A stretch of DNA of 64,000 bases, taken from an uncultured bacterium (GTDB lineage: Bacteria; Cyanobacteriota; Vampirovibrionia; Gastranaerophilales; Gastranaerophilaceae). Position 1 is the first letter of the stretch. The number at the start of each line of letters is the position of its first letter. The stretch is from positions 33,337-97,336 of the forward strand of contig CACYUI010000002.1 in assembly GCA_902777605.1 (NCBI GenBank). The letters are read 5' to 3'. The position numbers were made by a program, and so were the translations under genes. Of the stretch, positions 6,791 through 43,245 are shown in pieces. Below the pieces are notes generated by a model, which saw nothing but the letters and a program-made list of their open reading frames with translations, was not told the origin of the DNA and made no database searches.

Positions 6791-6859
6791 CATATATATA
6801 AAGTATTCTAAAACTAAAAAATTGCATAATTTATAAAATTTGTTACAAAGATTTACAAT
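6791..6859 (-). promoter_or_regulatory. Class-A promoter with HLR1-like direct repeat
   Basis: Coding strand: HLR1 (6842-6859, + strand GTTACAAA-ga-TTTACAAT) - 14 nt - ATGCAA - 16 nt - TACTTTATATATATG. Confidence 0.7.
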
Positions 6860-6912
6860 TATAAATCAATTTATGTATTTTGGCGCAAAAAATCTAAAAA
6901 TGGTAATTATTC

Positions 6913-7266
6913 GGGTATTTCTTTCTCTTTTTGGTTGCGATGCAAAAGGAGAAAGAAATACCCAAAAGAAAGAGAAAAACACGCAATCGTTTTCTATGCC
7001 CTTACGGGCAATTTTTCATGTTCGGCAAAGCCGAATCTTTAACGCGCCCTAAATAACGGGCGCGGTGCTAAATTCACTCGTATTTAAAAATTATGTCCAA
7101 GCCTGTCGTAACGAATAAACAATGTTTGTGAGACAGGAACAAAGCGGGCATTGTTTGAGCGAAGCGAGTTTGCCCGCTTAAGTCGAGCAATTACAATTGT
7201 TTAATGAGTGAAGACCGAGCTTGGAGAGTTTCTTTGGTTCGTTTCTTTGCGGGCAAAGAAATGAAC
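6913..7266. repeat. Cassette of tandem hairpins (MITE-like or structured RNA)
   Basis: At least six stems: GGGTATTTCTTTCTC/GAGAAAGAAATACCC, TGCCC/GGGCA, TTCGGC/GCCGAA, CGCGCCC/GGGCGCG, AAGCGGGCA/TGCCCGCTT, GTTCGTTTCTTTGC/GCAAAGAAATGAAC. Confidence 0.55.
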
Positions 7267-7348
7267 AATAAAAAGTACGATACTTTTTAAACTTTTGCAC
7301 CATTATACATATTTTGGTGCAATTTAATACTTGTGCTAAAATCAGATT

Positions 7349-8314
7349 ATGAATATTAATAAAGGTGACATAATTGGAATAATTGCTTTATCAGGCGATT
7401 GTGACAGAGATAAAATTGAGAAAGCAAAAGCCAATATTGAGGCTTTAGGATATAGAGTTGAATTGTCACAAAACATTTTTGATAAAGACAGGTATCTTGC
7501 AGGCTCTGATGAGGTTAGAATCAAAGAACTTCACAGATTCTTTAAAGATGACAAAATAAAGATTATACTCTGTGCTCGTGGCGGATATGGCGCAATTAGA
7601 CTGATTAATGATATTGATTATGATTTGATTAAGAATAATCCAAAGCCGTTTTGCGGATTTTCTGATGTTACAGCACTTTTATTAATGATATACAAAAAAA
7701 TAGGAATAGTTACTTATCATTCACCTATGGCTCAAACTGATTTTTACTTCCCCACACCCTGCCCTCTCCCTCTAGGGACGAGTGAAACTGAGCAAGAGGC
7801 ACAAACGGATTTTACAAATCTTCCCTCGCACTTCGGGAGAAGGAATGAGGGTGAGGGGGCAAGCTCTGAAACAATAAGAACCTTTTTCGAAGTTATAAAT
7901 AACAAAAAATCTGAATATAAAATTACAAAAACATATCATAATGATGACACTGCAGGCATTCTTTGGGGTGGAAATCTTTCTACTGTTGTTTCACTTTGCG
8001 GTCAAGATTTTATACCAAACGATGATTTTATATTTTTTACAGAAGATTTATGTGAGCCGGTGTATAAGATTGATAAAATGTTTCAGCAGTTAATAAATAT
8101 AAAAGAGTTTAGAGATAGATGCAGGGCAATTATATTGGGTGATTTTTCAGACACAGATAATCAAGAATGGCTTGAAGAGTATTTTATTGAACTTGCTCAA
8201 AGATTGAATATACCAGTTGTACATATTGATGGTATTACACATTCTGAGAATAAAATAACATTACCGATTGGAGTTCGTGCAAGAATTGAGGAAGAAAAAC
8301 TGATTTTTGAATAG
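7349..8314 (+). CDS. LD-carboxypeptidase (peptidase S66) with in-frame palindromic insertion
   Basis: ARGGYGA, GFSDVTA (Ser), WGGNLS, FTED (Glu), THSENKITLPIG (His); extra ~38 aa Pro/Gly/Glu segment. Confidence 0.88.
   Translation: MNINKGDIIGIIALSGDCDRDKIEKAKANIEALGYRVELSQNIFDKDRYLAGSDEVRIKELHRFFKDDKIKIILCARGGYGAIRLINDIDYDLIKNNPKPFCGFSDVTALLLMIYKKIGIVTYHSPMAQTDFYFPTPCPLPLGTSETEQEAQTDFTNLPSHFGRRNEGEGASSETIRTFFEVINNKKSEYKITKTYHNDDTAGILWGGNLSTVVSLCGQDFIPNDDFIFFTEDLCEPVYKIDKMFQQLINIKEFRDRCRAIILGDFSDTDNQEWLEEYFIELAQRLNIPVVHIDGITHSENKITLPIGVRARIEEEKLIFE
7748..7862. repeat. Palindromic repeat inserted in frame in the S66 peptidase
   Basis: GC-rich island with imperfect terminal inverted repeats CCCCACACCCTGCCCTCTCCC ... 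GGGAGAAGGAATGAGGGTGAGGGGG; boundaries approximate. Confidence 0.65.
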
Positions 8315-8401
8315 TTGTTGTTAATTAGTTATGGCGATTCTTCACATTCGTTCAGAATGACTAATAGAATTAAACCTTATTTTTAGGTTAAAAAATAAAA
8401 A

Positions 8402-8661
8402 GCCGTACCACTGTCTATCGAAATAGAGCGAAAAAGATTTTGCTTATACAACCTACTTCTTAAAACTATAACACCCGCAAGGGTTACCTTAGTGCTGCTA
8501 TGTTTCCATCCTGACACGGTTCGATATCTTACGCCATTATATTCTAAGCTATCAACAATCCTATAAACATAGGCTCATTCGCTATACCCCTCACAACAGG
8601 CTCTGCACCTCGCATAAGCGTTCGAGTCGAGAGAACCGCCAATTCCCCGTGGAGTACGGCA
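8402..8661 (-). ncRNA. ffs: Signal recognition particle RNA, long (Alu-containing) bacterial type
   Basis: Helix 8 core GAACCGTGTCAGG-ATG-GAAA-CAT-AGCAGCACTAAG (CAGG...AGCAG at 8495-8513). The 5' TGCCGTACTCCACGGGGAATTGGCGG and 3' GACAGTGGTACGGC resemble the Bacillus scRNA ends and pair with each other. ~260 nt. Confidence 0.85.
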
Positions 8662-8666
8662 GGGGT

Positions 8667-8695
8667 ATAATAACATAAAAAAATTTTTAACTCAA
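8667..8695 (-). promoter_or_regulatory. Sigma70-type promoter of SRP RNA
   Basis: TTGAGT-N17-TATTAT with extended -10 TG, ending 5 nt before the RNA 5' end. Confidence 0.7.
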
Positions 8696-8700
8696 TATAT

Positions 8701-8728
8701 AAAAGGTGACTTATTAAAAGTCACCTTT
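8701..8728 (-). terminator. Intrinsic terminator of 8735-9922
   Basis: AAAGGTGACTT/AAGTCACCTTT stem. Confidence 0.7.
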
Positions 8729-8734
8729 ATTTTA

Positions 8735-9922
8735 TTAACTCCAGTCTTTTGTACCGTATCCATTATGCCAGCTGTATTGCTTAAGTTCATATTTGCCATC
8801 AGTTGTTTTTTGTAATGCGTATAATTGTCCGCCGGTTGCGTTACTTTTGTATATATATTCACCGTCTATTGTGTCTTGGTATGTATAAGTTATAGTCTTT
8901 GTATCATATATTGTTATTGTTTCAGGATGGTTACCTGTTAAAGAACTTACTATTTTTGTAGTTTTACCGGTTTTATTAACTGTATTTCTTGTCTTACCGC
9001 TAGTATCATTGGCAAGAGTTACATCACCGTTATTTAGTTTTGTTTTTCCATCGTAGTTTGTATAATTACCGTAAAGTTTTTGTTTTATAAGTTTTCTTAG
9101 AGCTTCATCTATTTTTGCTAAATCGTCAGCAGTTGGTTTTGGATTAAGTTCTAAATATTTATTAACAAAAGCTTTCTTTTCATCATCTGTGGTTGGAGTC
9201 AATTTTAACAATTCATCCAATGTTTTTGCATCATTAATTTTTGTTGCATTATCAGCTACAGTTGCAGGCGCCGGTGTAGCTGCAACTGTAGGTTTAGCTG
9301 CAACTTTTTTAGGAGATTTATCCGGTTCTGGCGTAGCTTTTGCTTTTCCGTCATTATCAGGAGTGCCTTTTAGTTCATTAATTTTATCTTGTAATCCAAA
9401 TTTTAATTGTTTAATATAATCTTTGTCCTTTTTATCTTCATTACCGTCAAGATTTTTTTCAAGAGCCACTATATCGTTTAATAAAGTTTCTAAATCTTTA
9501 ACTGAAGGCTTTTCTTGACCTAATAATTTATTTTTTCTTTCAAATAATTTATTAAGTTTTTCATAATCTTTGTTTTCTGCACCTTGTGTATTATTAGTGT
9601 TTCTGCTGCTCAATTGGTGACCACCGAGACCAAAATCACCCCAGCCGCCGCCGAATGATGGAAAGCCAAAACCAAATCCGCCGAAGATATTGCCTAAAAT
9701 ACCTGAGAACAGGTTAGCAAATCCCATTCCGAAGCCCATGCCAATTCCACCCCAAAAGCCGCCGCCCCAAGAGCTACTACCGCACCTACAATGTGGTGTA
9801 TTATATACAACATTAAATACACTAGGGATGTCTCCACAACAAGCTTTATGTCCGTGGAACATTTCGTAGTGTTGATATGCTGTGTGACATCCGACGCGTC
9901 TTGATTGTGAGAAGAATGACAT
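8735..9922 (-). CDS. Hypothetical protein with Gly/Phe-rich hydrophobic N-terminal segment
   Basis: 395 aa; GAGG RBS; GGGFWGGIGMGFGMGFANLFSGILGNIFGGFGFG; Pro/Ala/Thr linker; no Sec signal. Confidence 0.75.
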   Translation of the reverse strand: MSFFSQSRRVGCHTAYQHYEMFHGHKACCGDIPSVFNVVYNTPHCRCGSSSWGGGFWGGIGMGFGMGFANLFSGILGNIFGGFGFGFPSFGGGWGDFGLGGHQLSSRNTNNTQGAENKDYEKLNKLFERKNKLLGQEKPSVKDLETLLNDIVALEKNLDGNEDKKDKDYIKQLKFGLQDKINELKGTPDNDGKAKATPEPDKSPKKVAAKPTVAATPAPATVADNATKINDAKTLDELLKLTPTTDDEKKAFVNKYLELNPKPTADDLAKIDEALRKLIKQKLYGNYTNYDGKTKLNNGDVTLANDTSGKTRNTVNKTGKTTKIVSSLTGNHPETITIYDTKTITYTYQDTIDGEYIYKSNATGGQLYALQKTTDGKYELKQYSWHNGYGTKDWS

Positions 9923-9951
9923 ACTCTGTACCTCGTTTTTTACTTACATCT

Positions 9952-10020
9952 TATATATATAAAGTATATAAAATGTACTTAATTTCATAAGGTAATAAAT
10001 TTGTTACAAAACTTTACATT
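9952..10020 (-). promoter_or_regulatory. Class-A promoter with HLR1-like direct repeat
   Basis: HLR1 10003-10020 (GTTACAAA-ac-TTTACATT) - 14 nt - ATGAAA - 16 nt - TACTTTATATATATA. Confidence 0.7.
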
Positions 10021-11588
10021 GCTTGCTTTAGTTTAAAAACAATAAATACAAATCCTTTACCGACTTGTTTGATTGGAGCATAGTTAGTGAGTATATAATC
10101 ATAAATTTGTTGTGCATAATCTTGCCCGAAATATGAATAATAATAGTTTGAAGTGTCATAGTTGCTTATAACTATGTATTTTGGTTTATTATTGTATAGT
10201 CTTTCGATAATATTTTCTTCTCCAAAGGTTTCTATATATAGAGGAATTAATGAATAAAATTTATTATCAGAACTTCTTTTTGTCAAAAAGTTAATTGCTG
10301 TCGTTTCAGGTAGCACTAATATTTTGTCGTTATCACGAGTATTATCATTAATATAAGAAATTAATTCTTTAATTGAGTTTCCATAATAGTCATTAGAATA
10401 AACAATGCCGTTTTCAGTTTCAATTTTAATATTTTTCTCTGATAATGAAATTATATTCTTTGCAGAGAATGTAAAAGACATTATAAATACAATAATCAAT
10501 AAAGATTTTTTGTATCTTCGTGGTATGACAATAAATAATGATAAAACCGCAAGTGGAAGAAAATAAACTCCATAGGATAAGAGAGTTAGTGCAAAAAACA
10601 GCTTCAATGAGATTGCAAGAGTTGAAAATACGAGAAATTTTTTATTTAAATTTAAATTTTTATAGCTAAATATCAATAATATTAGCAAAAGGGGAAATAT
10701 ATAAACAAATATAGCAGGTGAAATTGTAAAGCAAAAATAGACTAAAATTAGGAGCGTTACTAACCAGTGTCTAAAAAAGTATAAAAATGCTAAAGGAATA
10801 AAGCATTTTAGGAAATTTATACCATAAATTGGTATAAGTTCCAGTCGAAAAGTCAATCCGCTAATTGAATAGAACCAATATAGCGTTTTAGTCGATGACA
10901 TAGTTAGTATTGTTTGACAAATATTAGATAAATCATTTACCCTCAGCCCCATAACCAAAAGAGGTAAAAATACAATAAAAATAGTGGCTATAATATTTAG
11001 TATACTTTTTAAAAACTCTTTTTTACCGCTATACCAAAATAAAATAGGAAGAAGAAATATAAATTCATATTTAGAACAAATTGCTAAAGCATAAAAAATA
11101 TAAGCAAGTTTTGATTTACCTTTCAATGCAAAATAAACAGAAAGAAGAACAAATAATATTCCGTATATAATACCGTATGAATATGGAAATATAAAATTAA
11201 ATACATTTGGAGAAAGAACTGAGGCTGCAATCGTTAGCATCACTATTGATAAACTGTATGTTTTGGGTAAAAATTTGTTTGATATTCTATATAACGAATT
11301 TAAAATTCCTAAAGTTGCCAAAAGTCCCGCAAAATATAAAACTCTGAGTTTTGTTCCAAAAATTAGCATTAAAAAAGCATTAATAATATAAGCTAAAGGC
11401 GGATAGACACAGAAAATATCTTTATACAAAACTTGACCTTTAAGCATTTGCACAGGAATATAAGCTTCTCTAAAAGAATCTATTATAATATGACCAAAAT
11501 GACCGTAAAATACTGCAAATATTAGCAATGTAAGAACATTAAATAATATTAATTGCCAGTGTTTTTTTATTATATTATCCCAATTCAT
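10014..11588 (-). CDS. Multi-pass membrane glycosyltransferase-like protein (GT-C/ArnT-PMT-like)
   Basis: Many TM helices; DSFREAY and YKDIFCVYPPLAY in the first loop; C-terminal soluble domain. Confidence 0.6.
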   Translation of the reverse strand: MNWDNIIKKHWQLILFNVLTLLIFAVFYGHFGHIIIDSFREAYIPVQMLKGQVLYKDIFCVYPPLAYIINAFLMLIFGTKLRVLYFAGLLATLGILNSLYRISNKFLPKTYSLSIVMLTIAASVLSPNVFNFIFPYSYGIIYGILFVLLSVYFALKGKSKLAYIFYALAICSKYEFIFLLPILFWYSGKKEFLKSILNIIATIFIVFLPLLVMGLRVNDLSNICQTILTMSSTKTLYWFYSISGLTFRLELIPIYGINFLKCFIPLAFLYFFRHWLVTLLILVYFCFTISPAIFVYIFPLLLILLIFSYKNLNLNKKFLVFSTLAISLKLFFALTLLSYGVYFLPLAVLSLFIVIPRRYKKSLLIIVFIMSFTFSAKNIISLSEKNIKIETENGIVYSNDYYGNSIKELISYINDNTRDNDKILVLPETTAINFLTKRSSDNKFYSLIPLYIETFGEENIIERLYNNKPKYIVISNYDTSNYYYSYFGQDYAQQIYDYILTNYAPIKQVGKGFVFIVFKLKQAM

Positions 11589-11617
11589 AAACTTATCTTA
11601 ACAAAGCTTAACAAATA

Positions 11618-11652
11618 AAGCAATTTTTTTGAATAAAAAAACTTTATATATG
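11618..11652 (+). promoter_or_regulatory. Class-A promoter (variant)
   Basis: AAGCAA-N16-AACTTTATATATG; only a degenerate upstream repeat (CTTAAC x2). Confidence 0.5.
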
Positions 11653-11679
11653 TGTGTAGTAGATAGAAGGTGTTTTAAT

Positions 11680-12339
11680 ATGGCAATCAATCCATATACT
11701 TTAAATGGTTTATACCAAAAAGGCATATTAGATTATGTTGACCCTGAACTTTGTGCCGGTCAGCCGATTGTTTCTCAATATAACGGCATGTCTAATCCTT
11801 ATGCTAAAAACTACATGAATAATGCAATGCAAGGTAATTTATATCAAAATCACGGAATGCAAAATGATAGTTTTACATTTAACGGTGGCGGAATAGGTTC
11901 AAAGTCTAATTCATTTAATAATATGTTTGGACAAAATGGTGTAGGAGTATATTCTTCTTCAGTAAATAACATGTTTGGAGACGATAAAGTAGGTTCCAGA
12001 TATCAAGGTAATGCATTTGGTACCGGCGATACATCTATTGGTTCGTATTATCAAGGTGGCGGAGAAAATTCTTTTGGTGGATTTAGTGATGCAAGAAACA
12101 GTATAAATGGTGGTGTTGCAAAAGCACAAGCAATTTACAATAATACTCCTTCAGTTATAAAAGGCATTGCAGCTGTTGCGATTGGTTTACTGGGAATAAA
12201 AATGTTATTTAAAGGAAAAGGCAGTAAAACTGCTAAAAAAAGTTTTTTAGAAAAGATTCAGTTTTGGAAAAGTCCTAAGCCTGAACCTAAAAAAGCTGAG
12301 AAAAAAAGTTTCTTATCAAAATTAAAGTTTTGGAAATAA
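11680..12339 (+). CDS. Hypothetical Gly/Asn-rich protein with one TM helix and duplicated C-terminal SFLxKxxFWK motif
   Basis: Start moved to ATG 11680 (GAAGG RBS); NNMFG repeats; KKSFLEKIQFWK and KKSFLSKLKFWK. Confidence 0.7.
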   Translation: MAINPYTLNGLYQKGILDYVDPELCAGQPIVSQYNGMSNPYAKNYMNNAMQGNLYQNHGMQNDSFTFNGGGIGSKSNSFNNMFGQNGVGVYSSSVNNMFGDDKVGSRYQGNAFGTGDTSIGSYYQGGGENSFGGFSDARNSINGGVAKAQAIYNNTPSVIKGIAAVAIGLLGIKMLFKGKGSKTAKKSFLEKIQFWKSPKPEPKKAEKKSFLSKLKFWK

Positions 12340-12393
12340 ATAAACTATATTATTAACCTTATTAAAATACCTTATTAATTAACCAATTATCAC

Positions 12394-12415
12394 GCGCCCA
12401 TAGGCGCTTTTTTTT
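12394..12415 (+). terminator. Intrinsic terminator
   Basis: GCGCC-cata-GGCGC-T8. Confidence 0.7.
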
Positions 12416-12500
12416 ATGAAAACTTTTAATTAATCATTCCCTCTCCAGTAGGATGATTAGTGTTGGGGTTGATAAGAAACCATTCAGTCTCCAGCGGGGA

Positions 12501-12546
12501 GTGTACTAAAAAAGAACAGGCGGGAGTCTTTTGAACTCTCGCCTGC
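12501..12546 (-). terminator. Intrinsic terminator of 12571-14787
   Basis: Minus strand GCAGGCGAGAGT-loop-ACTCCCGCCTGT-TCTTTTTT. Confidence 0.7.
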
Positions 12547-12570
12547 ATCTTTTTCATATTCCGGCTATTA

Positions 12571-14787
12571 TTAACCAAATAGGTTATTAAGTTCAGTAAT
12601 AATACCTTCGTTTGGTGAATGTCCGTCACAAGTGCATTTACATTCAACTTTACCTGTAACATCAACAGTAACTTTGACATCGTGGTCTTCAATTTTGACT
12701 TCAATATCTTTTAAGCCTTTTTTAAGCAATTCTATAATTTCATTTATACCTGCAATCATTGTATCAGCTTTAATATTCATGTCGCCAAGCTTAACATTTG
12801 TTTCATTACCGTTCTTTTCTATTTTTGCTAAGAACTCAAGGATTTTATCCATGTTAACCTTGCCACTATTAATGATAACTTTCAGATTTGCTTGTGTATT
12901 GGCATCGAGAGCTTTGATTGCATTCAGTATTTCATCCATCTTGGCAAGACTCAATTTACCTTGTTCTAACAATGCTTTAAATCCTTCAGCGGTTGTTGTT
13001 CCAAGAGTCTTAATAGCTTCAAGTATTTTTTCGCCGATTTCTTTTGCATCTTTACCATTTTGAACAACATTATTGTTGATTGTCTTCAACAGTTCTGTCA
13101 TATCTTTGAGCTCTTGTGTATTACCATTGATTGCTTCAAGGATTGCTTGTAAGTATGCCTCTGTTTTAGAACCATCACCTATGTTCAAGTTCTTGATTGC
13201 TTTAAGAATTTCTTTCATCAATGCAATACCGGTATCACCTTGTGCTAATACTTTAGCAAATCCTGCTGACATATTTACACCAAGTTTGTTAATAGCCTCA
13301 ACTGTTTGTTTACCAATTTCTTTTGCTTCTTTTCTACCGTCGGTAATATTCTTATTGATGGCGTTGAGTAATGCTGTAATATCATCAAGTTTGCCGCCAT
13401 TTTTAACGATTGCATTTAATAGTGCCGTAAATTGAGCTTTGTTTTCGTCACCAAGATTTGCAAGAGCTTTTAATACTGCATTATAGAATGCTTCTGCTTT
13501 ATCACCTTGTTCATTAATTTTGTCTAATATAGCTTGACTAATACCAAGTTGAACTTTTATGTTATTATTCAATTCAGCTAACTGACCACTAATTTGAACT
13601 GTGGTGAAATCAATGTGTTTCAGAAGTTGCAACATTAACAATAATTTTTCACTATCTTTAGTTTGAGTATTTCTAATTTTTTCAAGAAGAGCCTTAATAT
13701 CTTGTTGCGTAGCACCATTAATTGTTACTTGATTTAGTATAGCATCTATTTTACCTGCTAAAGCTTCTAAAGACCCTCTAATAGAAGAAATATCAGCATT
13801 TCCTGATTTAATTAGATTAATAATCATATTTAAATCGCCTTGGAACTCTGATTTAATTGATGCAGGAAGAGCTTTAATAAGTGCTGTTAAGTCTTTGACA
13901 GCATTTTCTACATTATAAACAGCCTCCAACAAGTCATCAAATCCCATATTCATGTCATTTTGAATCTTTTTAAGCAATGCGTTATTATCTACTACTGCAG
14001 TCAAAATTTGTGGTAAATAGTTTCCACATGTATTTTTGATATCTTGCAATGAATCACCATTTTTAATAGATTGTTCAAGCAACTGTATTAGTATTGCATT
14101 ACTTACATCTTGTTTTTCATTAAGTGCATTAATAGCATCGGCCAATGACTTTAACTCAATTCCTACTTCAACGGTCTGCTCAGTACTGCACATACCCATA
14201 ATACCTGTCGCAGCACCTGCATAGCCAAGTAATGTACTAAATGTATTTTCAATACTAAAATTCCCATTAGCATCTGTAAACCCTCTGTAATTGGATTCTT
14301 TCATTTCATCAGGAAATGGAAATTCTACTTTACCTTTAGTCGCATTATATGCAACTAGTCTTGCGGGAGCAATCTTTTCTTTTTGTCTAAAATATTTTTC
14401 TTTTATTTGAGTACCATCTTTTGCATAAAATTTATAAGTTTCTTTACCGGTTTTCGGATCTTTTTGATATACGATATATCTTCCAGATTTCATAGTACAA
14501 AATTTAGGTTCATATTTTTGCGGATTTTTTGCTCTGTCTTTTTTTACTTCTGCTTGATTTAACTGTGCAAAGTTTTTGGAATGTTTAAAATCTAACTTCT
14601 CGCCTACACCCCAATTAGCATTACCATTTATTGTTTCTAAAGCTGCATCATCTGCTTTTGTCCATGCACCATTTTGCTTTGCCATAGCAATAGCGTCTTC
14701 AACAGATTTTGCAATTGTCATAAATGGTTTTAACTTTGATTGTTGTGTCGGTGTTAAATCACTAAAATCAATTTTTCCAAATGCCAT
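12571..14787 (-). CDS. Large coiled-coil repeat protein (~738 aa), function unknown
   Basis: Start moved to ATG 14787 (GAAAGGAG RBS); long heptad region with internal repeats KEAKEIGKQTVEAINKLG / KDAKEIGEKILEAIKTLG. Confidence 0.8.
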   Translation of the reverse strand: MAFGKIDFSDLTPTQQSKLKPFMTIAKSVEDAIAMAKQNGAWTKADDAALETINGNANWGVGEKLDFKHSKNFAQLNQAEVKKDRAKNPQKYEPKFCTMKSGRYIVYQKDPKTGKETYKFYAKDGTQIKEKYFRQKEKIAPARLVAYNATKGKVEFPFPDEMKESNYRGFTDANGNFSIENTFSTLLGYAGAATGIMGMCSTEQTVEVGIELKSLADAINALNEKQDVSNAILIQLLEQSIKNGDSLQDIKNTCGNYLPQILTAVVDNNALLKKIQNDMNMGFDDLLEAVYNVENAVKDLTALIKALPASIKSEFQGDLNMIINLIKSGNADISSIRGSLEALAGKIDAILNQVTINGATQQDIKALLEKIRNTQTKDSEKLLLMLQLLKHIDFTTVQISGQLAELNNNIKVQLGISQAILDKINEQGDKAEAFYNAVLKALANLGDENKAQFTALLNAIVKNGGKLDDITALLNAINKNITDGRKEAKEIGKQTVEAINKLGVNMSAGFAKVLAQGDTGIALMKEILKAIKNLNIGDGSKTEAYLQAILEAINGNTQELKDMTELLKTINNNVVQNGKDAKEIGEKILEAIKTLGTTTAEGFKALLEQGKLSLAKMDEILNAIKALDANTQANLKVIINSGKVNMDKILEFLAKIEKNGNETNVKLGDMNIKADTMIAGINEIIELLKKGLKDIEVKIEDHDVKVTVDVTGKVECKCTCDGHSPNEGIITELNNLFG

Positions 14788-14842
14788 AGTTTGTATTCTC
14801 CTTTCTAAATTTTCATAACAATACAATCCTACTTTGGTATTG

Positions 14843-14904
14843 TTATCGGCATTTTTTTTTAAAACTTTAGAGAATTATGAAAAATCGTTACATAACTTTA
14901 CATA
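14843..14904 (-). promoter_or_regulatory. Sigma28 (FliA/SigD)-type promoter with HLR1-like repeat
   Basis: Coding strand TAAAGTTT-N11-GCCGATAA (exact sigma28 consensus, 14843-14869); HLR1 14887-14904 (GTTACATA-ac-TTTACATA) 17 nt upstream. Confidence 0.8.
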
Positions 14905-14990
14905 AATTTCTGAAAATCAATTATAATTTCATCTAAAAGAGTGATGAAAAAAATAATTAAATAATTTATCCTTCATATAGCGAGGTAAAT

Positions 14991-15227
14991 GTGAATATCA
15001 AACAACAACTAAAGAAAAAAATTCAGCTTAAAGAACTAGAAATTAAGAAACTAAAGCTCCATGAGTCCTCTTCTGAAATCTGTGCACAATTATATAATAC
15101 ACTTATTTTAGAAAAAGCTATTTTAAAAAAGGAGCTAGATGACACTAAGAAAAACCCTATAATTGAAAAAATAAAAAAAGTACTCCCAAAACGCGAAAAG
15201 CTTATTTGCGATTATTTTAAAGAATAA
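14991..15227 (+). CDS. Small hypothetical coiled-coil protein
   Basis: GAGGT RBS, GTG start, 78 aa, Lys/Leu rich. Confidence 0.55.
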   Translation: MNIKQQLKKKIQLKELEIKKLKLHESSSEICAQLYNTLILEKAILKKELDDTKKNPIIEKIKKVLPKREKLICDYFKE

Positions 15228-15241
15228 TACATAATTTTTCT

Positions 15242-15404
15242 GGATTACTTCGTCGCTTCGCTCCTCGTAATGACACCTTCTGTCATTGCGAGAAAATCTT
15301 AATTTCCACATCAATACATTTTATTTTGGATTATTTCATCGCTTCGCTCCTCGTAATGACACTTTCTGTCATTGCGAGAAAATCTTTGATTTTCGCGGCA
15401 ATCT
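15242..15404. repeat. Tandem TGTC-tagged palindromic repeat halves
   Basis: Right halves GGATTACTTCGTCGCTTCGCTCCTCGTAATGACA at 15242-15275 and 15328-15361; left halves TGTCATTGCGAGAAAATC at 15281 and 15367. Confidence 0.85.
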
Positions 15405-32944: not shown

Positions 32945-32950
32945 GGTAAT

Positions 32951-36210: not shown

Positions 36211-36224
36211 AAGAAAGGGAATAT

Positions 36225-36818
36225 ATGAGAGAGTTAATAAAAAATGACCAGTTAGTAACAATTGTTCCTCAAGATTTTAAGAATACAAACAAAGGAAAAG
36301 TACTTAATGTTTCAATAGATGGATTTAAAATGGAGTTAAAATATAAACCGGAAGGACTATTTGTTAATCATATTTGTGATTTTTACTCATTTACTGATAA
36401 CGGATATTTATATTTCGAATCATATATTCAATCATTAGAAAATAACATTATAACCATTGCAAATCCGGTAAAACATAGATTCTTACAAAGGCGTAAGTTT
36501 ACTCGTATCAAATTTATTGAAGAATTGGAGCTAACATGTAATAACATTACTCATAAAATTAGAACTCTTGACTTGTCAGCAGGAGGAATGAAAATTCAGA
36601 CACAGGAGAATATTGATATTGAAACTGAGTATAATGTTAGTCTCAAGCTAAGTGATGAACAAGAAATTAAGTGTAAATATCAATTAATAAGAATTGAAAA
36701 AGGTGATAACGGATTATACACAATATCAGGAAGATTTACATCTCTAAGTAACATTGATAAAATGACTTTAGTTCAGTTCTGTATGAAAAAAGACATGGAA
36801 AATATTAATAAGAAATAA
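36225..36818 (+). CDS. PilZ-domain (YcgR-like) c-di-GMP receptor
   Basis: QRRKFTR (RxxxR) and DLSAGGM (DxSxxG). Confidence 0.85.
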   Translation: MRELIKNDQLVTIVPQDFKNTNKGKVLNVSIDGFKMELKYKPEGLFVNHICDFYSFTDNGYLYFESYIQSLENNIITIANPVKHRFLQRRKFTRIKFIEELELTCNNITHKIRTLDLSAGGMKIQTQENIDIETEYNVSLKLSDEQEIKCKYQLIRIEKGDNGLYTISGRFTSLSNIDKMTLVQFCMKKDMENINKK

Positions 36819-36823
36819 GATAA

Positions 36824-37165
36824 ATGAACTATTCAAATGATATTAAAAATTTACTAGTAGCACTTACAATGCTTATAATTGGAGGCATTTGTCTAACACG
36901 CATGGGTGCAGTTAATATGCACACTATAATAGCAACATCTTCAATTTTAATACCTGCAGTAGTTGTAATGGGATATTTAGGTCAAAGAATGGGACAAATT
37001 CTTGATAACCCGAAAAATAGAGCAGATGCCGATTATAAGATTGCTGTTCTAAACGCTTTAAAGAAAATGGATAAGTCTATAACACTGGAAGAATTAAATC
37101 AAAAACTTACGAAGCAAGTAGAAGAACCTGATTTGCCAGATGAAAAAGATGATATTGACGAATAA
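36824..37165 (+). CDS. Hypothetical two-TM membrane protein
   Basis: Two hydrophobic helices and an acidic tail; co-oriented with the flh cluster. Confidence 0.6.
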   Translation: MNYSNDIKNLLVALTMLIIGGICLTRMGAVNMHTIIATSSILIPAVVVMGYLGQRMGQILDNPKNRADADYKIAVLNALKKMDKSITLEELNQKLTKQVEEPDLPDEKDDIDE

Positions 37166-37229
37166 CTAATTCGACTATTATTTTTATGATAAAATTAATA
37201 AAGGGATAAATTTACCCATGGAGGATTAA

Positions 37230-39719
37230 ATGAAAGAGGCTTATTTTCCGCAAGAAATAGAAAAAAAGTGGCAGTCAGAGTGGGAGAAAAACAATGTTTT
37301 TCAAACACCTGACAATAGTGATAAACCAAAATATTTTGCGTTATCAATGTTTCCATACCCATCAGGGAAATTACATATGGGACATGTCAGAAATTATACA
37401 ATTACTGATGTAATTGCAAGGTTTAAAAAGATGCAAGGGTATAATGTATTGCATCCAATGGGATGGGATAGTTTTGGATTACCTGCTGAAAATGCAGCAA
37501 TGAAACATGGTGCAGATCCTGCAAAATGGACTGATGAAAATATTGCATATATGACTAAGCAACTAAAGATGTTAGGGCTTTCTTACGATTGGCAAAGAGA
37601 AGTTACAACTTGCAAACCTGATTATTATAAATGGACACAATGGTTATTTCTTCAATTGTATAAAAAAGGATTAGCATATAAAAAGGAAGCTGCTGTAAAT
37701 TGGTGTGAAACTTGCGGTACAGTTTTAGCTAACGAACAAGTAATTGATGGCAAATGCTGGAGATGTGATTCAGTAGTTGAGAAAAAATATCTTTCGCAAT
37801 GGTTTTTCAAGATTACTGATTATGCAGAACAATTATTAAAAGACCTTGATAAGCTTGATGGTTGGGGCGATAATGTTAAGACAATGCAAGCCAACTGGAT
37901 TGGAAAATCTCAAGGTGCAATATTTAGATTTAAGGTAAAAGAGATTGAAGGTATGGAAGTGCCTGTATATACTACAAGACCTGATACGGTTCACGGCATA
38001 ACTTATCTTGTAGTTGCACCTGAATATAAAGATATTGAAAAACTAACAACACCTGAAAACAAAAATGCAGTAGAAGAATATAGAGCAAACGCTCGGAAAA
38101 TGACTGAAATAGAAAGACTTTCAACAGACAGAGTTAAAACAGGTGTGCCTCTTGGTACACACTGCATAAATCCTTTTAATGGTGAAGAATTTCCTCTGTG
38201 GACTGCAGACTATGCGCTAGTTGAATATGGCACAGGCGCAGTAATGGCCGTACCAACACACGATACAAGGGATTTTGATTTTGCTAAAAAATACAATTTA
38301 CCATTAAAAGTTGTAATACAAGATCCGCAAAATCCTTCAGATTGCAAAGATGTAGCATATACTGAAGAAGGGGTTCTTGTTAACTCAAACGAATTTAACG
38401 GCATGAAAAATACAGAAGCTAAAAAAGCTATTACACAAAAGGCTGTAGATGGTGGTTTCGGTGAATTCAAAACACAATACAGACTTAGAGATTGGTTAAT
38501 TTCAAGACAAAGATATTGGGGTGCTCCAATACCTGTTGTTTACTGTGACAAGTGTGGTATTGTTCCAGAAAAAGAAGAAAACTTACCTGTTATGCTACCT
38601 ACTGATGTGGATTTTTCTGTTGTAGGAAAATCACCAATTACTACATCAAAAACATTTAAAGATACAACTTGTCCTGTATGTGGCGGACCTGCTACAAGAG
38701 AGATGGATACAATGGATACTTTTGTATGTTCAAGTTGGTATTACCTAAGGTATTCAGATGCAAAGAACAGTGAAAAATGTTTTGATAAAGAAAAAGTTAA
38801 TCACTGGCTGCCAGTAGATCAGTATGTAGGCGGAATAGAACATGCAATCTTACACTTACTATATTCAAGATTCTTTACTAAAGCACTTAGAGATTGCGGT
38901 TTATTAGACTTTGATGAGCCGTTTAAAAATCTTTTAACTCAAGGTATGGTATTAAAAGATGGATCAAAAATGTCTAAATCTAAAGGTAATACTGTCGATC
39001 CTGATGAAATATTTGAAAATTTTGGTGCAGATACAGCAAGATTATTCATACTTTCTGACTCTCCGCCAGCAAGAGATTTTGATTGGTCGGATGCCGGTGT
39101 AGAAGGCTGTTACAAATTCTTAAATAGAGTTTGGAGGCTTATAAGTGATGGAGTTAATAAAAGAGAAATTGCTAAAGATTACAAATTAGCATTTCCTCTT
39201 TCAAGAGAAAATGACGACTTAGTAAGAATTGTAAATATTGCAATGAAAGGAATTACAAACGACATATCTAATGATTTTCAGTTCAATACTGTCATTTCTA
39301 AATATCGTGAACTAACTAATGCTATTTACGATTGGAGAGGCAAATGCAAAGGCGAACTAGATAACGAACAAAAGAATGTATTCAGCTTTGCGACAACCTC
39401 TTTAATAAAACTTATGTCACCTGTTACAGTACATATGGCAGAAGAAATTTGGCATGAATTAGGTTACAAAAATTCAATTCACGAAGAAAAATGGTGTGAG
39501 TGGGATGAGAGCTTAGCAAAAGCCAGCAAAATTACACTTGTTATTCAAGTTAACGGAAAAGTGAAAGATAAACTTGAGGTTGATGAAGGAGTGACAGATG
39601 AAGATCTTAAACAAATTGCTCTTTCTACCGAAAAGATAAAAGAAATCACTTCAGGAAAAGAAATTGTCAAAACAATTGTTGTTCCGAAAAAACTTGTTAA
39701 TATTGTTGTTAAAGGATAA
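37230..39719 (+). CDS. leuS: Leucine--tRNA ligase
   Basis: MFPYPSGKLHMGH, TTRPDT, DWLISRQRYWG, GGIEHAILHLLY, KMSKSKGN. Confidence 0.98.
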   Translation: MKEAYFPQEIEKKWQSEWEKNNVFQTPDNSDKPKYFALSMFPYPSGKLHMGHVRNYTITDVIARFKKMQGYNVLHPMGWDSFGLPAENAAMKHGADPAKWTDENIAYMTKQLKMLGLSYDWQREVTTCKPDYYKWTQWLFLQLYKKGLAYKKEAAVNWCETCGTVLANEQVIDGKCWRCDSVVEKKYLSQWFFKITDYAEQLLKDLDKLDGWGDNVKTMQANWIGKSQGAIFRFKVKEIEGMEVPVYTTRPDTVHGITYLVVAPEYKDIEKLTTPENKNAVEEYRANARKMTEIERLSTDRVKTGVPLGTHCINPFNGEEFPLWTADYALVEYGTGAVMAVPTHDTRDFDFAKKYNLPLKVVIQDPQNPSDCKDVAYTEEGVLVNSNEFNGMKNTEAKKAITQKAVDGGFGEFKTQYRLRDWLISRQRYWGAPIPVVYCDKCGIVPEKEENLPVMLPTDVDFSVVGKSPITTSKTFKDTTCPVCGGPATREMDTMDTFVCSSWYYLRYSDAKNSEKCFDKEKVNHWLPVDQYVGGIEHAILHLLYSRFFTKALRDCGLLDFDEPFKNLLTQGMVLKDGSKMSKSKGNTVDPDEIFENFGADTARLFILSDSPPARDFDWSDAGVEGCYKFLNRVWRLISDGVNKREIAKDYKLAFPLSRENDDLVRIVNIAMKGITNDISNDFQFNTVISKYRELTNAIYDWRGKCKGELDNEQKNVFSFATTSLIKLMSPVTVHMAEEIWHELGYKNSIHEEKWCEWDESLAKASKITLVIQVNGKVKDKLEVDEGVTDEDLKQIALSTEKIKEITSGKEIVKTIVVPKKLVNIVVKG

Positions 39720-39727
39720 AATAAATT

Positions 39728-39760
39728 AGCCGTTTTGGTAATATCCAAAACGGCTTTTTT
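39728..39760 (+). terminator. Intrinsic terminator after leuS
   Basis: AGCCGTTTTGG-taatat-CCAAAACGGCT-T5. Confidence 0.8.
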
Positions 39761-39777
39761 GTGTTTTATATAATTAT

Positions 39778-39990
39778 ATGAAAAAGATTATTTGTTTATT
39801 AATTCTGATAGGTTTAAATTTATCTGTATCTGCTATTGCTGATACTGTAGTGTACAATACTAAAACAGGTAAATACCACTCAATAGGCTGCCAATGGGCA
39901 AAAAAATGCACTGTCAACTGTATAAATATTGACCGTAAACAAGCTAAAGCCAGAGGCGGTGTTCCTTGTAAAGTATGCGGCGGGTACTAA
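39778..39990 (-). CDS. Small exported protein with Ada-like Zn-binding motif
   Basis: Signal peptide; VVYNTKTGKYHSIGC...GGVPCKVCGG. Confidence 0.7.
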
Positions 39991-40002
39991 AAATTATTAA
40001 TA

Positions 40003-40124
40003 TGGTGGGCGTTACAAGACTGTCTTGCTCGGTGGCGTTAAACGGGTCTGCGGTTTTTCTTTTCAGAAACTTCGTTTCTCCCAAAGAAAACACCTCCGCC
40101 CTCTGCCACCTCGCGCTCGAACTT
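40003..40124 (-). repeat. tRNA-Val 3'-end duplicate interrupted by a 96-nt hairpin
   Basis: 40003-40021 identical to 40210-40228; 40116-40124 (CTCGAACTT) identical to 40227-40235; nested palindrome in between. Confidence 0.7.
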
Positions 40125-40173
40125 TGGCACAGCTTTGCTATGCAAGTTCTCCTACCTTATAAACTCCGTATAA

Positions 40174-40209
40174 CTAAAGAGACAGTAACAAATGTTACCG
40201 TCTCTTTAG
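40174..40209 (-). terminator. Hairpin directly downstream of tRNA-Val
   Basis: CTAAAGAGAC-A-GTAACA/TGTTAC-C-GTCTCTTTAG. Confidence 0.6.
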
Positions 40210-40285
40210 TGGTGGGCGTTACAAGACTCGAACTTGTGACCCTCTGAATGTCGTTCAGATGCGCTACCAACTGCGCCAAACGCCC
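40210..40285 (-). tRNA. trnV: tRNA-Val (GAC)
   Basis: GGGCGTT/AACGCCC acceptor + ACCA, D-arm GCGC/GCGC, anticodon stem TCTGA/TCAGA with loop ACGACAT, T-loop TTCGAGT; 76 nt. Confidence 0.9.
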
Positions 40286-40523
40286 ATATTTAATTTTCAA
40301 AAAGCTGTAGCGCATCTACGATGCTACCTCTCCTCGGAAGATACTTAATCTTCCTCGTCGGCAGAGTCAACTGCGCTGCGTTTTCCTTGTAGTTTGACTT
40401 TGGTATATTTTGCATTTACCCCCGCCAAACGCCCGTATTTAATTTTCAAAAGCTGTAGCGCATCTACGATGCTACCTCTCCTCGGAAGATACTCAATCTT
40501 CCTCGTTAGCAGAATTAACTACA
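40274..40523. repeat. Imperfect tandem duplication (149-nt offset) containing the tRNA-Val 5' end and a GTAG hairpin
   Basis: CGCCAAACGCCC at 40274 and 40423, each followed by ATTTAATTTTCAAAAGCTGTAGCGCATCTACGATGCTACCTCTCCTCGGAAGATACT. Confidence 0.8.
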
Positions 40524-40749
40524 CCAATATAATAATTTACTTATATCATAAATTATTAAATTTTTAAATATCACTTTAGTTAAGGATTGTAAACTTTAAA
40601 GAAAAAGCTTGCAATAATAAATAAAATGTGTATAATAGGAGACATAAAGGGTTATGATACCTGTTGAGAGAGAGATGCGAGGATATCACAAATCTATATA
40701 ACAGATATTTCAATCCTTGAAGGTAGAAAAAGTGTATAGGAGATTTATC

Positions 40750-41022
40750 ATGAACAAAGAAGAACTAGTTAAAGAAATTTCTAAGAAAACAAAACTTTCT
40801 CAAAAAATGTCATCAGATGTTTTATCTGCAACTTTAGAAATTATCCAAAAAACAGTTGCTAAAGGTAAAAAAGTAACTTTAGTTGGTTTTGGTACTTGGG
40901 AAGCTCGTAAGAGAGCTGCTAGAACAGGCAGAAACCCACAAACTGGTAAAGAATTAAAAATTGCTGCTAAGACTGTTCCAGCATGGTCTGCAGGCAAATC
41001 ATTCAAAGAACTTGTAAAATAG
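40750..41022 (+). CDS. hup: DNA-binding protein HU
   Basis: MNKEELV, VTLVGFGTW, RTGRNPQTG; AGGAG RBS before 40750; TTGCAA-N16-TATAAT at 40609-40636. Confidence 0.96.
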   Translation: MNKEELVKEISKKTKLSQKMSSDVLSATLEIIQKTVAKGKKVTLVGFGTWEARKRAARTGRNPQTGKELKIAAKTVPAWSAGKSFKELVK

Positions 41023-41040
41023 TTTTTGTTAGTAGATTTG

Positions 41041-41077
41041 ATAACGGCGGTGTTTATTAATACCGCCGTTATTTTTT
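41041..41077 (+). terminator. Intrinsic terminator after hup
   Basis: ATAACGGCGGT/ACCGCCGTTAT-T5. Confidence 0.8.
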
Positions 41078-41118
41078 ATTTATGATAAAATTGTATATTA
41101 TCATGTGAGGATTAAAAG

Positions 41119-41871
41119 TTGAGTATAAAAATTGCAATAACAGGTAAAAGTGGCAGCGGTAAAACAACCATTACTAAGTCATTTTTAAAAATTATTCAAG
41201 AAAATTTTCCTGATAAATCGGTATTATTGTTTGATAATGATTTAACAGGGGAACTTGGTCATTCTTTTGGGCTAGATATCAGAAATACGATATATGGTAT
41301 AAGAAGCGGTAAGCATGAGTATAAAACTGGTATCCCCGATGGTATGAATAAACATGAATATGTTGAATGGGCAATTGAGGATATATTAGTACCAATAAAT
41401 GATAATGTCGATATTATTGTTTCTTGGTTTGTTGGAGCAAAGGACTGTAGATGTCCTATAACCGGGCAAATAAATGATGCTTGTCAAAAACTTATTGAAC
41501 GATATGACTATGTTATTTTTGACTGCGAATTTGACCTTAAATATTTAAATCAGTTGGTTGATACAAATATTGATTTAACACTTGTTGTAGCTAATCCGAC
41601 AATTGAGTCTGTTAAGTTGACAAAAAGAATAGCCGAGTTTTCTTCAAAATATGCAGCTGGCGGACAATTCGGTATTATCATGAACAAAGTTGATAACCAA
41701 AATTTAGGTGAAATATACAACATGATAAAAGATGCTGATCTTGAAATACTAGGTTCGGTTCCGCTTGATAATAATTTATCATTAGGAACTGTTAATTGGG
41801 AATCTGATATTGTAAAAAATGCAGTTAAAGAATTCTATTTTAGACTCAACCTTCCACAGGAGAATCAATAA
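41119..41871 (+). CDS. CooC/AcsF-like P-loop ATPase
   Basis: KIAITGKSGSGKTT (deviant Walker A), CRC metal motif, YVIFDCE, IIMNKV. Confidence 0.7.
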   Translation: MSIKIAITGKSGSGKTTITKSFLKIIQENFPDKSVLLFDNDLTGELGHSFGLDIRNTIYGIRSGKHEYKTGIPDGMNKHEYVEWAIEDILVPINDNVDIIVSWFVGAKDCRCPITGQINDACQKLIERYDYVIFDCEFDLKYLNQLVDTNIDLTLVVANPTIESVKLTKRIAEFSSKYAAGGQFGIIMNKVDNQNLGEIYNMIKDADLEILGSVPLDNNLSLGTVNWESDIVKNAVKEFYFRLNLPQENQ

Positions 41872-42707
41872 TGATATTACTAGATGGTAAAAAAACTTCT
41901 GAAAAAATATTAAAAAAGGTTAAATTTAATGTAGAAAAAACTATTAACAATACAGGAAGAGTACCACATCTTGTTGTAATAATTGTAGGAGAAAATCCTG
42001 CCAGTCAAATTTATGTTCGCAATAAAAAAAATACTGCCGAAAAAATTGGAATTAAATCTACAGTTATAGAATTTCCCGAAAATGTATCCGAAAAAAATTT
42101 ACTAAAAAAAATTGCTGAGCTTAACAAAGATAATGATGTAACAGGAATTCTTGTACAATTACCATTGCCTAAGCATATTAATAAAAATAATATTGTTCAA
42201 GCAATTGCACCACAAAAAGATGTTGATGGATTTACGCCGGAAAATGTTGGAAAGTTAGCTATTGGCATAGAGCCTTATTTTTATCCTGCAACACCTCAGG
42301 GAATAATTATGCTGTTGGATGAATATAAAATTAAAATAGAGGGAGCTGACATTCTTGTAATTGGTCGTTCCAATATAGTTGGCAGACCAATGTCACAAAT
42401 GCTGATAAATAGAAATGCAACCGTTACTACTGCGCATTCATACACTAAAGATTTGGATGACAAAATAAAAACCGCCGATATTGTAATATCCGCGGTGGGT
42501 AAAAAAATTGTAAGATGTAAGATGGTTAAGAAAAATTCTGTTATAGTTGATGTTGGCATATTTAAGGATGCCAACGGCAAGCTTACCGGTGATGTAGATT
42601 TTGAATATGTATCTCCGTCCTGCGAGTTTATTTCGCCTGTACCGGGCGGTGTTGGACCTATGACAATAGCCTCTCTTATGTATAACGCTTCGAAAGTCTA
42701 TGTCTAA
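41871..42707 (+). CDS. folD: Methylenetetrahydrofolate dehydrogenase/cyclohydrolase
   Basis: ASQIYVRNK, GILVQLPLP, KDVDGF, GRSNIVGRP, SPVPGGVGPMT. Confidence 0.97.
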   Translation: MILLDGKKTSEKILKKVKFNVEKTINNTGRVPHLVVIIVGENPASQIYVRNKKNTAEKIGIKSTVIEFPENVSEKNLLKKIAELNKDNDVTGILVQLPLPKHINKNNIVQAIAPQKDVDGFTPENVGKLAIGIEPYFYPATPQGIIMLLDEYKIKIEGADILVIGRSNIVGRPMSQMLINRNATVTTAHSYTKDLDDKIKTADIVISAVGKKIVRCKMVKKNSVIVDVGIFKDANGKLTGDVDFEYVSPSCEFISPVPGGVGPMTIASLMYNASKVYV

Positions 42708-42715
42708 ATTAATTA

Positions 42716-43150
42716 TTAGCCTCCTTGAAGTAATCCTGTGTCTTGAGCTGCTGTAGAAGTTGCTGTCTTTGCAGATTCTTTTTGAGCTCTTAATTCTTCA
42801 AGCATTGTATCCATTGTTTGTCTCATTGTATCGTAATCAATATCTAAGTCTTCTAATTCTTCTAACAATTCTTCGTTAAATTGTTTTACTTTTGCGTGTG
42901 CATATGCATCTGCTATCGAAGTATTTTGGTTATCTATTGCAACTGTGATGCTGCCACATCTTTTTTCTTTATCATTGCCAATAGCATCATCGTAAGCTTT
43001 TTCCCATTTTTCTTCGTACTTAACTTGCTCTTCAAGTTTTGCACTTACGCCTTCATATTTACTATTCCAATAAATAGATTGCTGAGTATAATAGTTTATG
43101 TCTGCATTGATTGCTAATAAATTTCCTAATAAAGCTGCTGTGTTTGACAT
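42716..43150 (-). CDS. Lineage-specific helical protein (144 aa), homolog of 57533-58645
   Basis: AAGG RBS; N-terminal LLAINA; C-terminal DIDYD...MDT...ES.K motif shared with 57533-58645. Confidence 0.75.
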   Translation of the reverse strand: MSNTAALLGNLLAINADINYYTQQSIYWNSKYEGVSAKLEEQVKYEEKWEKAYDDAIGNDKEKRCGSITVAIDNQNTSIADAYAHAKVKQFNEELLEELEDLDIDYDTMRQTMDTMLEELRAQKESAKTATSTAAQDTGLLQGG

Positions 43151-43176
43151 TTTCTTATACCTTTTGTTTCATCTTA

Positions 43177-43245
43177 CATATATATAAAGTATTTAAAAAT
43201 TATTGAATTTCAAAAAGGTTTTATTTTGTTACAAAAGTTTACATT
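43177..43245 (-). promoter_or_regulatory. Class-A promoter with HLR1-like direct repeat
   Basis: HLR1 43228-43245 (GTTACAAA-ag-TTTACATT) - 14 nt - TTGAAA - 16 nt - TACTTTATATATATG. Confidence 0.7.

Follow-up and report, generated by a model that had tools for sequence, protein, structure and literature searches.

The 64-kb window analysed here (the whole stretch of 64,000 nucleotides, nt, of contig CACYUI010000002.1) has a G+C content of 27–38% and belongs to a genome with 32% G+C. Its genes include rpoC2, for a split RNA polymerase subunit of the cyanobacterial type, and genes for FlhA (flagellar export), UvrA, LeuS, GatA, pyruvate phosphate dikinase, a GAF/HD-GYP protein and an LD-carboxypeptidase, and its sequence is present in DNA runs of bovine and sheep gut metagenomes. 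Because of this gene content, the gut metagenome runs and the titles of contigs that carry relatives of one of its proteins, the window is assigned to a gut bacterium of Gastranaerophilales/Melainabacteria, the sister lineage of cyanobacteria that does not photosynthesise. Prochlorococcus, which the HLR1-like repeats described below and 32% G+C might suggest, has been rejected as the source because split rpoC2 occurs here together with flagellar flhA and pyruvate phosphate dikinase. Four of its genes, encoding proteins of 84, 395, 219 and 144 amino acids (aa), are preceded by one class of promoter, which is the subject of this report. The class is a distinct and rigid promoter type that is kept across species, differs from the housekeeping promoters and has a layout like that of sigma-28 promoters.

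The four sites share one order of elements on the gene strand, namely a direct repeat TGTAAA-nn-TTTGTAAC, the box G(C/A)AATT, 15 nt, ACTTTATATAT, a Shine-Dalgarno sequence and the ATG, which lies 39–43 nt beyond the A of ACTTT (Table 1). An earlier note on this DNA had described a motif with invariant spacing before these four genes. All four sites have been confirmed, and the case is stronger than first stated: the refined pattern GMAATT-N15-ACTTTATATA (M = C/A) is exact at 4/4 sites, that at 11680 included, with about 0.001 exact occurrences expected by chance (own calculation from base composition). With two or fewer mismatches the pattern was found five times, compared with 0.74 expected from 100 shuffles. 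Written with octamers, the class has the form GMAATTTT-N11-ATACTTTA-TATATA. Of the six exact copies of ACTTTATATAT in the window, two have no upstream box, those at 2364(-) and 30894(-), and are counted as non-members. Neither the spacers nor the flanks of the four promoters are related to one another, so the promoters are not duplicated DNA. The genes themselves were earlier called orphans, which is wrong. The 144-aa product has 373 homologues at about 70% identity, and the other genes have diverged relatives behind the same promoter; a weak homologue of the 219-aa gene, for example, lies behind this promoter type in locus L121, and the 5' leader of the 84-aa gene is nearly identical to that in metagenome locus L153.

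Table 1. Promoters of the new class and sigma-28-type comparison promoters in the window, with positions in nt.
Promoter of	ATG	Extent	Strand	Upstream repeat	-35 octamer	-10 octamer	Putative AT start region	Exact ACTTTATATAT copy	Remarks
84-aa gene	6765	6791..6859	(-)	HLR1-like, 6840-6859 ATTGTAAATCTTTGTAACAA	6818-6825 GCAATTTT	6799-6806 ATACTTTA	6791-6798	6794-6804	new class
395-aa Gly/Phe-rich protein gene	9922	9952..10020	(-)	HLR1-like, 10001-10020 AATGTAAAGTTTTGTAACAA	9979-9986 GAAATTAA	9960-9967 ATACTTTA	9952-9959	9955-9965	new class
219-aa gene	11680	11586..11654	(+)	degenerate CTTAAC direct repeats in 11586-11615	11620-11627 GCAATTTT	11639-11646 AAACTTTA	11647-11654	11641-11651	new class
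144-aa helical-hairpin protein gene	43150	43177..43245	(-)	HLR1-like, 43226-43245 AATGTAAACTTTTGTAACAA	43204-43211 GAAATTCA	43185-43192 ATACTTTA	43177-43184	43180-43190	new class
370-aa gene	58645	58681..58748	(-)	ATTGTAACGATTTGTAAC	CTAAAGTTT	GCCGATAT			sigma-28 type; boxes 58681-58708; 12-nt spacer
738-aa gene	14787	14843..14910	(-)	TATGTAAAGTTATGTAAC	CTAAAGTTT	GCCGATAA			sigma-28 type; boxes 14843-14870; 11-nt spacer

Conservation has been followed most closely upstream of the 144-aa gene, whose 143-aa orthologue was collected from 43 species-level genomes and further metagenome contigs. Every orthologue retains TTAAGwwTTGTAAC, (G/T/C)TGAAATT and, after 14 nt, (T)ACTT(T/a)(A/t)TATA(T/a/c)(A/g)(T/c)GTAAGAT in its upstream region. 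The boxes are kept, and the bases between them vary freely. ACTT and TATA are invariant in the 43 species; variation in the -10 block is confined to middle and 3' positions, and the T before ACTT becomes C, G or A. Judged from these alignments, such a pattern is not that of a sigma-70 hexamer. The chromosomal gene lies within conserved housekeeping synteny (folD, parA-like, rpoC2) in the 43 species. The protein (window 42716-43150(-); L007-L049) has 84% mean column identity with invariant N- and C-terminal segments, and no Pfam family was found for the 144-aa product. It is modelled with confidence (predicted local distance difference test score, pLDDT, 84) as a long helical hairpin with a small beta tip, and a comparison of the model with the PDB gave no match at E <= 0.001.

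The same promoter type precedes many other genes. In 830 kb of related loci, the -35-like box is present at 73/104 copies of ACTT[TA][AT]TATA, and these 73 copies precede at least 9 further gene families. In 70/71 sites from 11 gene families, the A of ACTTT stands 21 nt after the G of GMAAT. When metagenome contigs were scanned for the exact pattern, at least 120 stretches matched, and among the matches listed there are 112 distinct sites ahead of dozens of lineage-specific gene families. Their extended consensus is aaaaaG(C/A)AATTtTtt..tAwAT-ACTTTATATATA-YR. Conservation also reaches beyond the search pattern to an A-run before the G, TtTtt after GMAAT, tA(T/A)AT before ACTTT (A 84%, A 88%, T 88%) and Y-R after TATATA. 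The proteins behind the promoter are mostly small or of low complexity, with N-termini rich in Gly, Phe, Met, Cys and Asn or with coiled coils, and a few have enzyme-like sequence motifs (judged by eye). An uncharacterised protein type recurs among them: the products of the 395-aa gene (8735-9922(-)) and of genes in L158, L186, L197, L209, L223 and L225 have unusual N-termini rich in Gly, Phe, Met and Cys (e.g., GFGMGFANLFSG and FGGCGMPGMFGG repeats), followed by coiled coils or small globular domains. At other sites (L131, L224, L228, L231, L235 and others) the promoter is followed by C/A-rich sequence without G and T (e.g., taaataaacacgaaacacataacacaa), with no ATG-started open reading frame within 110 nt; these stretches may be long leaders or small RNAs.

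Phages also carry the motif. The same pattern was found in only 69 stretches of the whole IMG/VR collection, and the full architecture is present in 13 of them by our reading. Three motif-bearing contigs are confirmed as phage by their genes: L061 and L095 encode an SU10-like portal, and L075 a DnaB helicase and an OLD-TOPRIM protein. Further IMG/VR loci with the complete promoter, HLR1-like repeat included, are L056, L063, L070, L080, L084, L102, L109-L111 and L115. Each fetched phage-contig stretch has one motif copy, which often stands ahead of a 96-aa 'MLFT...FYGANRFGNNFIA' gene. Because real phage contigs carry one full copy each, a host factor is taken to read the promoter, and the motif-bearing viral contigs are probably Gastranaerophilales phages that use this factor. 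A megablast search of window positions 6000-12500 against phage records gave no match.

The housekeeping promoters of the window are canonical, with TTGnnn-N16-18-(TGn)TATAAT ahead of HU, transketolase (tkt), gatA, uvrA, the DAHP synthase gene and others. The gene for the RNA of the signal recognition particle (SRP) has the promoter TTGAGT-N17-TATTAT, which ends 7 nt before the RNA 5' end. As first noticed, the motif is absent before housekeeping genes, where TATAAT-type -10 boxes are found; TATAAT is never present in promoters of the new class. The class resembles sigma-70/SigA promoters (TTGACA-17-TATAAT) in that TACTTT fits the minimal TAnnnT and the class G occupies the position of the G of TTGACA at a 16-nt gap. 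Unlike in those promoters, the -35 TT is not conserved: the two bases before the G are A, G or T with no preference and vary among orthologues, which leaves no conserved TTG, and the two bases after the would-be hexamer are conserved. Instead of a variable spacer of 17 +/- 1 nt there is the one fixed spacing of 70/71 sites. In sigma-70 -10 hexamers -11 A and -7 T are conserved most and the middle is loose; TACTTT fits TAnnnT, yet its middle CTT is invariant and its -12 T variable in the 43 species, the 7 bases downstream are invariant as well, and the housekeeping genes use TATAAT. A Bacteroidetes-type promoter (TTG-N19-TAnnTTTG) has been rejected, since the organism is cyanobacterial and has Shine-Dalgarno sequences and TATAAT housekeeping promoters.

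Much closer in layout are the promoters of sigma-28 (FliA/SigD/WhiG), which have the consensus TAAAGTTT-n11-GCCGATAA and boxes 2–3 bp closer together than those of sigma-70 (PMC2859248). Sigma-28 promoters of the window and related loci, CTAAAGTTT-N11(12)-GCCGATA(T/A), match the published consensus, and the form in these genomes is TAAAGTTT-N11-GCCGATAT. The loose alignment of the new motif with such a promoter at 58681, proposed earlier, holds, and there is a second one at 14843-14870(-). Like sigma-28 promoters, the class has octamers 11 nt apart (8-N11-8; GMAATTTT-N11-ATACTTTA at 4/4 window sites), boxes closer than those of sigma-70 and a similar -35 octamer, which agrees with TAAAGTTT at 5–6/8 positions (GAAATTTT, 6/8), a likeness that by itself is weak evidence since both octamers are AT-rich. 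As in the sigma-28 promoters of these genomes, the -10 box is followed by an AT-alternating stretch, and an HLR1-like repeat often lies equally far upstream. Unlike them, it has the -10 octamer ATACTTTA, which shares 2/8 positions with GCCGATAA, and the first and fifth -35 bases also differ. Because true sigma-28 promoters (58681, 14843) coexist with it in the same window, the class is separate from sigma-28. Genes of the two types are interspersed: those at 11680 and 14787 are neighbours in the window, and L027 has a divergent pair (~1590-1700), in which a new-class and a sigma-28-type promoter point in opposite directions from what seems to be one common HLR1-like repeat region. The 370-aa and 738-aa products of the sigma-28-type promoters are coiled-coil proteins with no family match, and in related loci such promoters stand ahead of lineage-specific proteins of unknown function, not flagellins.

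The cyanobacterial element HLR1 consists of two (G/T)TTACA(T/A)(T/A) units 2 nt apart, and RpaB activates cyanobacterial SigA promoters in which the centre of the repeat lies between -66 and -45 (PMC6525291). An HLR1-like repeat had been claimed for the promoters described here and is indeed present, with 37 nt from GTAAC to ACTTT in three window promoters and 36 nt from GTAAC to GCCG at 14850 (own count). A direct repeat with a 10-nt period is often found upstream of both promoter classes at the same distance. Where present it consists of two 8-nt units 2 nt apart, but it is imperfect and is absent from some members. Examples are TTTACATT-tc-TTAACATT in the 67-aa and 96-aa families and TGTAAA-nn-TTTGTAAC in the 143-aa family and in sigma-28 promoters. 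The repeat is centred about 45 nt before the A of ACTTT, which equals -54 to -57, inside the RpaB range, only if the start is rightly placed at positions 9–12 (see below). In contrast to HLR1/RpaB promoters, the proximal half-site is (G/T)TAACA and not TTACA, the organism is non-photosynthetic, and the repeat precedes sigma-28-type and new-class cores, not SigA promoters. A search of 1.6 Mb of loci with an OmpR probe found no OmpR/RpaB-type regulator, only NarL-type response regulators. An NtcA site (GTA-N8-TAC) and a TGTAAC -35 box of the extracytoplasmic function (ECF) type have both been rejected, as the GTAAC box also lies upstream of the sigma-28 -35 box.

The position of the transcription start can be narrowed from the leaders. 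Counted from the A of ACTTT, the ATG of class members has a sharp mode at 38–41 nt, and Shine-Dalgarno-like sequences peak at positions 25–29. In the true members L178, L170, L220, L119, L223, L145 and L027 the Shine-Dalgarno sequence begins at positions 13–16, and the start should therefore be at about position 12 or before, inside ATATATA. We infer a start within the ATATATA run; (A)TACTTT(A) then remains as the -10 element, and the AT run would be where the DNA melts and transcription begins. TATATA has been rejected as the -10 hexamer, since it would need a 19–21-nt spacer and since Shine-Dalgarno sequences start at positions 13–16. Among the RNA runs, the 395-aa gene was found in none; bovine metatranscriptome contigs of a relative cover only 43004-43156, with nothing usable on 6400-12400, and in mouse metatranscriptomes the orthologous locus, L045, is covered about twofold. 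A side observation concerns the ACTTTATATAT copy at 2364-2374(-): it has no GMAATT box, and an in-frame ATG (~2333) belonging to the GAF/HD-GYP gene follows 41 nt downstream, at a spacing within the mode of the class. This copy may be a degenerate class member, and the gene may start at ~2333 and not at the GTG at 2396.

The class is best read as the core promoter of an alternative, group-3, FliA-like sigma factor that has the help of a protein on the HLR1-like repeat, a reading to which we give a probability of about 0.5. The reasons for assuming a dedicated sigma factor are the rigid, information-rich bipartite motif, its fixed position before start codons, its difference from the housekeeping signal and the sigma-28 layout. 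Domain 4 of the factor would read the -35 octamer G(C/A)AATTTT, and domain 2 would read the -10 octamer (A)TACTTTA 11 nt downstream of it, so that a FliA-like domain 4 and a domain 2 of different specificity would be joined in one dedicated factor. Transcription would start in the invariant ATATATA, about 11–13 nt after the A of ACTTT, and leaders would be about 27–30 nt long. In many members a response-regulator-type activator would bind the HLR1-like repeat centred about 55 nt 5' of this start, which is the position from which cyanobacterial RpaB activates, and the same repeat would serve the sigma-28 promoters of these genomes. The regulon would be large and would consist mainly of fast-evolving, lineage-specific small or low-complexity proteins, and Gastranaerophilales phages would have borrowed the promoter. 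The start site, the sigma factor and the activator are what we infer; what has been shown is the motif, with its rigidity and conservation, its difference from housekeeping promoters and the layout that it has in common with sigma-28 promoters.

Several points weigh against a dedicated sigma factor. The window and 1.6 Mb of related loci were searched by phmmer with E. coli FliA and generic sigma regions 2 and 4 as probes, and no sigma gene was found; the method works, because the OmpR probe found the NarL-type regulators. TACTTT meets TAnnnT and (T/A)ATACT, just 5' of it, is a near-consensus sigma-70 -10 sequence, so a primary or group-2 sigma factor could be the reader. The likeness of the two AT-rich -35 octamers, of the class and of sigma-28, is only suggestive. 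The extended consensus comes partly from sites selected with the exact pattern, which inflates conservation at the required positions. Some mouse RNA contigs cross the L045 promoter, and the RNA runs, with coverage nil or about 2-fold, gave no start site. The earlier proposal of a paralogous group-3 sigma factor with altered -10 specificity therefore stands in part: a distinct, rigid class with sigma-28 layout has been borne out, and a sigma gene to go with it has not been found in the window or the 1.6 Mb.

Recognition by the primary (SigA) or a group-2 sigma factor is unlikely but deserves serious weight. Without a usable -35 box, such a factor would use TACTTT or (T/A)ATACT and depend on two further proteins, an activator bound to the HLR1-like repeat and one bound to GMAATTTT at about -30. 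Activator-dependent or 'sigma-appropriation' promoters offer a comparison, as in the middle promoters of phage T4, where the MotA box lies about 12 nt 5' of the -10 box. The fit of TACTTT to TAnnnT with a 16-nt gap to nnGMAA suits this explanation, as do (T/A)ATACT at positions -3 to +2 (A 88%, T 88%), the lack of an alternative sigma gene in the window and the 1.6 Mb, and an HLR1 position appropriate for RpaB-type activation of SigA promoters (centre -66 to -45; PMC6525291). It is harder to reconcile with a -35 TT that is unconserved next to two following bases that are conserved, with a CTT, loose in sigma-70 -10 boxes, that is invariant in 43 species while the -12 T varies, and with rigid spacing where window housekeeping promoters have 16–18 nt. 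It also needs two separate extra factors where one sigma factor would suffice. Less probable still, and in our view improbable, is that ACTTTATATATA(YR) and GMAATT form the operator of a repressor or other regulator over an ordinary weak promoter and are not a sigma recognition sequence. The conserved block of about 16–18 nt is longer than a usual -10 element, and the box starts are 21 bp apart, or two helical turns; but the boxes do not repeat each other in either direct or inverted orientation (own reading), no other TATAAT/-35 pair is conserved in these regions, and the tightly fixed distance to the start codon (mode 38–41 nt) is typical of a core promoter.

The full motif in real phage contigs, among SU10-like portal, DnaB and OLD-TOPRIM genes, raises the question of whether it belongs to a phage-type single-subunit RNA polymerase or a phage sigma factor, with the chromosomal copies in prophage-derived genes. 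The conserved block does run unbroken into a purine-rich initial sequence. This explanation is nevertheless highly improbable given a single copy per fetched phage stretch, the housekeeping synteny (folD, parA-like, rpoC2) of the 143-aa gene in 43 species and the sharing of the host HLR1 and sigma-28 architecture. Promoters of single-subunit phage polymerases are one contiguous block of about 20 bp and go with a polymerase gene, whereas here two boxes flank a free spacer of 11 nt and the DNA examined showed no polymerase gene. A chance likeness of AT-rich upstream regions, or the recent duplication of one promoter cassette, has practically no probability left. The low G+C content of the genome (32%) and the merely twofold enrichment of ACTTTATATAT with one mismatch could have suggested it; it is refuted by the shuffle test, by four exact composite motifs where about 0.001 are expected, by the unrelated spacers and flanks of the four copies, by the fixed spacing at 70/71 sites, by the 112-site consensus and by boxes conserved in 43 species and more than 100 distinct promoters.

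Likeness to other known sigma factors is partial. The extended -10 element of E. coli sigma-S is TCTATACTTAA, and the class ATATACTTTA agrees with CTATACTTAA at 8/10 positions, the C at -8 included. Unlike sigma-S promoters, the class lacks the sigma-S-specific -13 C, and RpoS is proteobacterial and works with ordinary -35 geometry. The Bacillus factors sigma-E, -K, -G and -F belong to group 3 and recognise G(A/C)AT-type -35 and CATAnnnTA-type -10 boxes with spacers of 14–18 nt; their sporulation regulons are rich in small low-complexity structural proteins. The class tATACTTTA fits cATAnnnTA save for the first base. In contrast to the Bacillus systems, the class spacer is 11 nt, and there is no sign of sporulation in Gastranaerophilales. 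The class is a putative sigma-specific promoter type with a candidate activator site, not described in the literature searched, that departs from sigma-28 promoters in its -10 octamer and from housekeeping promoters in its -35 box and spacing. A literature search on Melainabacteria/Gastranaerophilales sigma factors, their transcription and this motif gave nothing relevant.

A wider version of the dedicated-sigma reading is put forward tentatively, at odds well below even. A second FliA-like sigma factor with new -10 specificity (ATACTTTA) and an RpaB-like regulator at HLR1-like repeats would together drive a large regulon of lineage-specific proteins that evolve fast, are of low complexity and are linked to the regulon of flagellar sigma-28. 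Phages would have captured the promoter. The regulon would probably comprise tens of genes per genome, a size estimated from four sites in 64 kb and from scans with at-least counts. If this is true, the HLR1/RpaB circuit predates photosynthesis or is independent of it and was originally wired to group-3 sigma promoters. Through these promoters a concrete connection between the HLR1/RpaB system of cyanobacteria and sigma promoters of the flagellar type in the non-photosynthetic sister lineage can be put to the test. As the motif is information-rich, the regulon is predictable from sequence alone in an uncultured gut lineage, its phages can be flagged too, and dozens of uncharacterised protein families are grouped into one co-regulated set. 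For annotation, promoter and start-codon anchors become available for fast-evolving genes beyond the reach of homology.

Some further features of the loci have been noted. Two adjacent genes for NarL/LuxR-type response regulators lie near the 143-aa gene in some species (L029 7718-9000(+); L036 13530-14810(-)). The window encodes an HDOD protein besides the GAF/HD-GYP protein, and a PilZ-domain protein gene (36225-36818(+)) is located directly 3' of flhA in the fliPQR-flhB-flhA cluster; together these hint at control of motility by cyclic di-GMP. The SRP RNA gene is of the large bacterial type (8403-8659(-); Rfam RF01854, 88.9 bits) and has the LD-carboxypeptidase gene on one side and the 395-aa gene on the other; short RNA contigs of bovine metatranscriptomes match it at 8486-8525 because the SRP RNA core is conserved.

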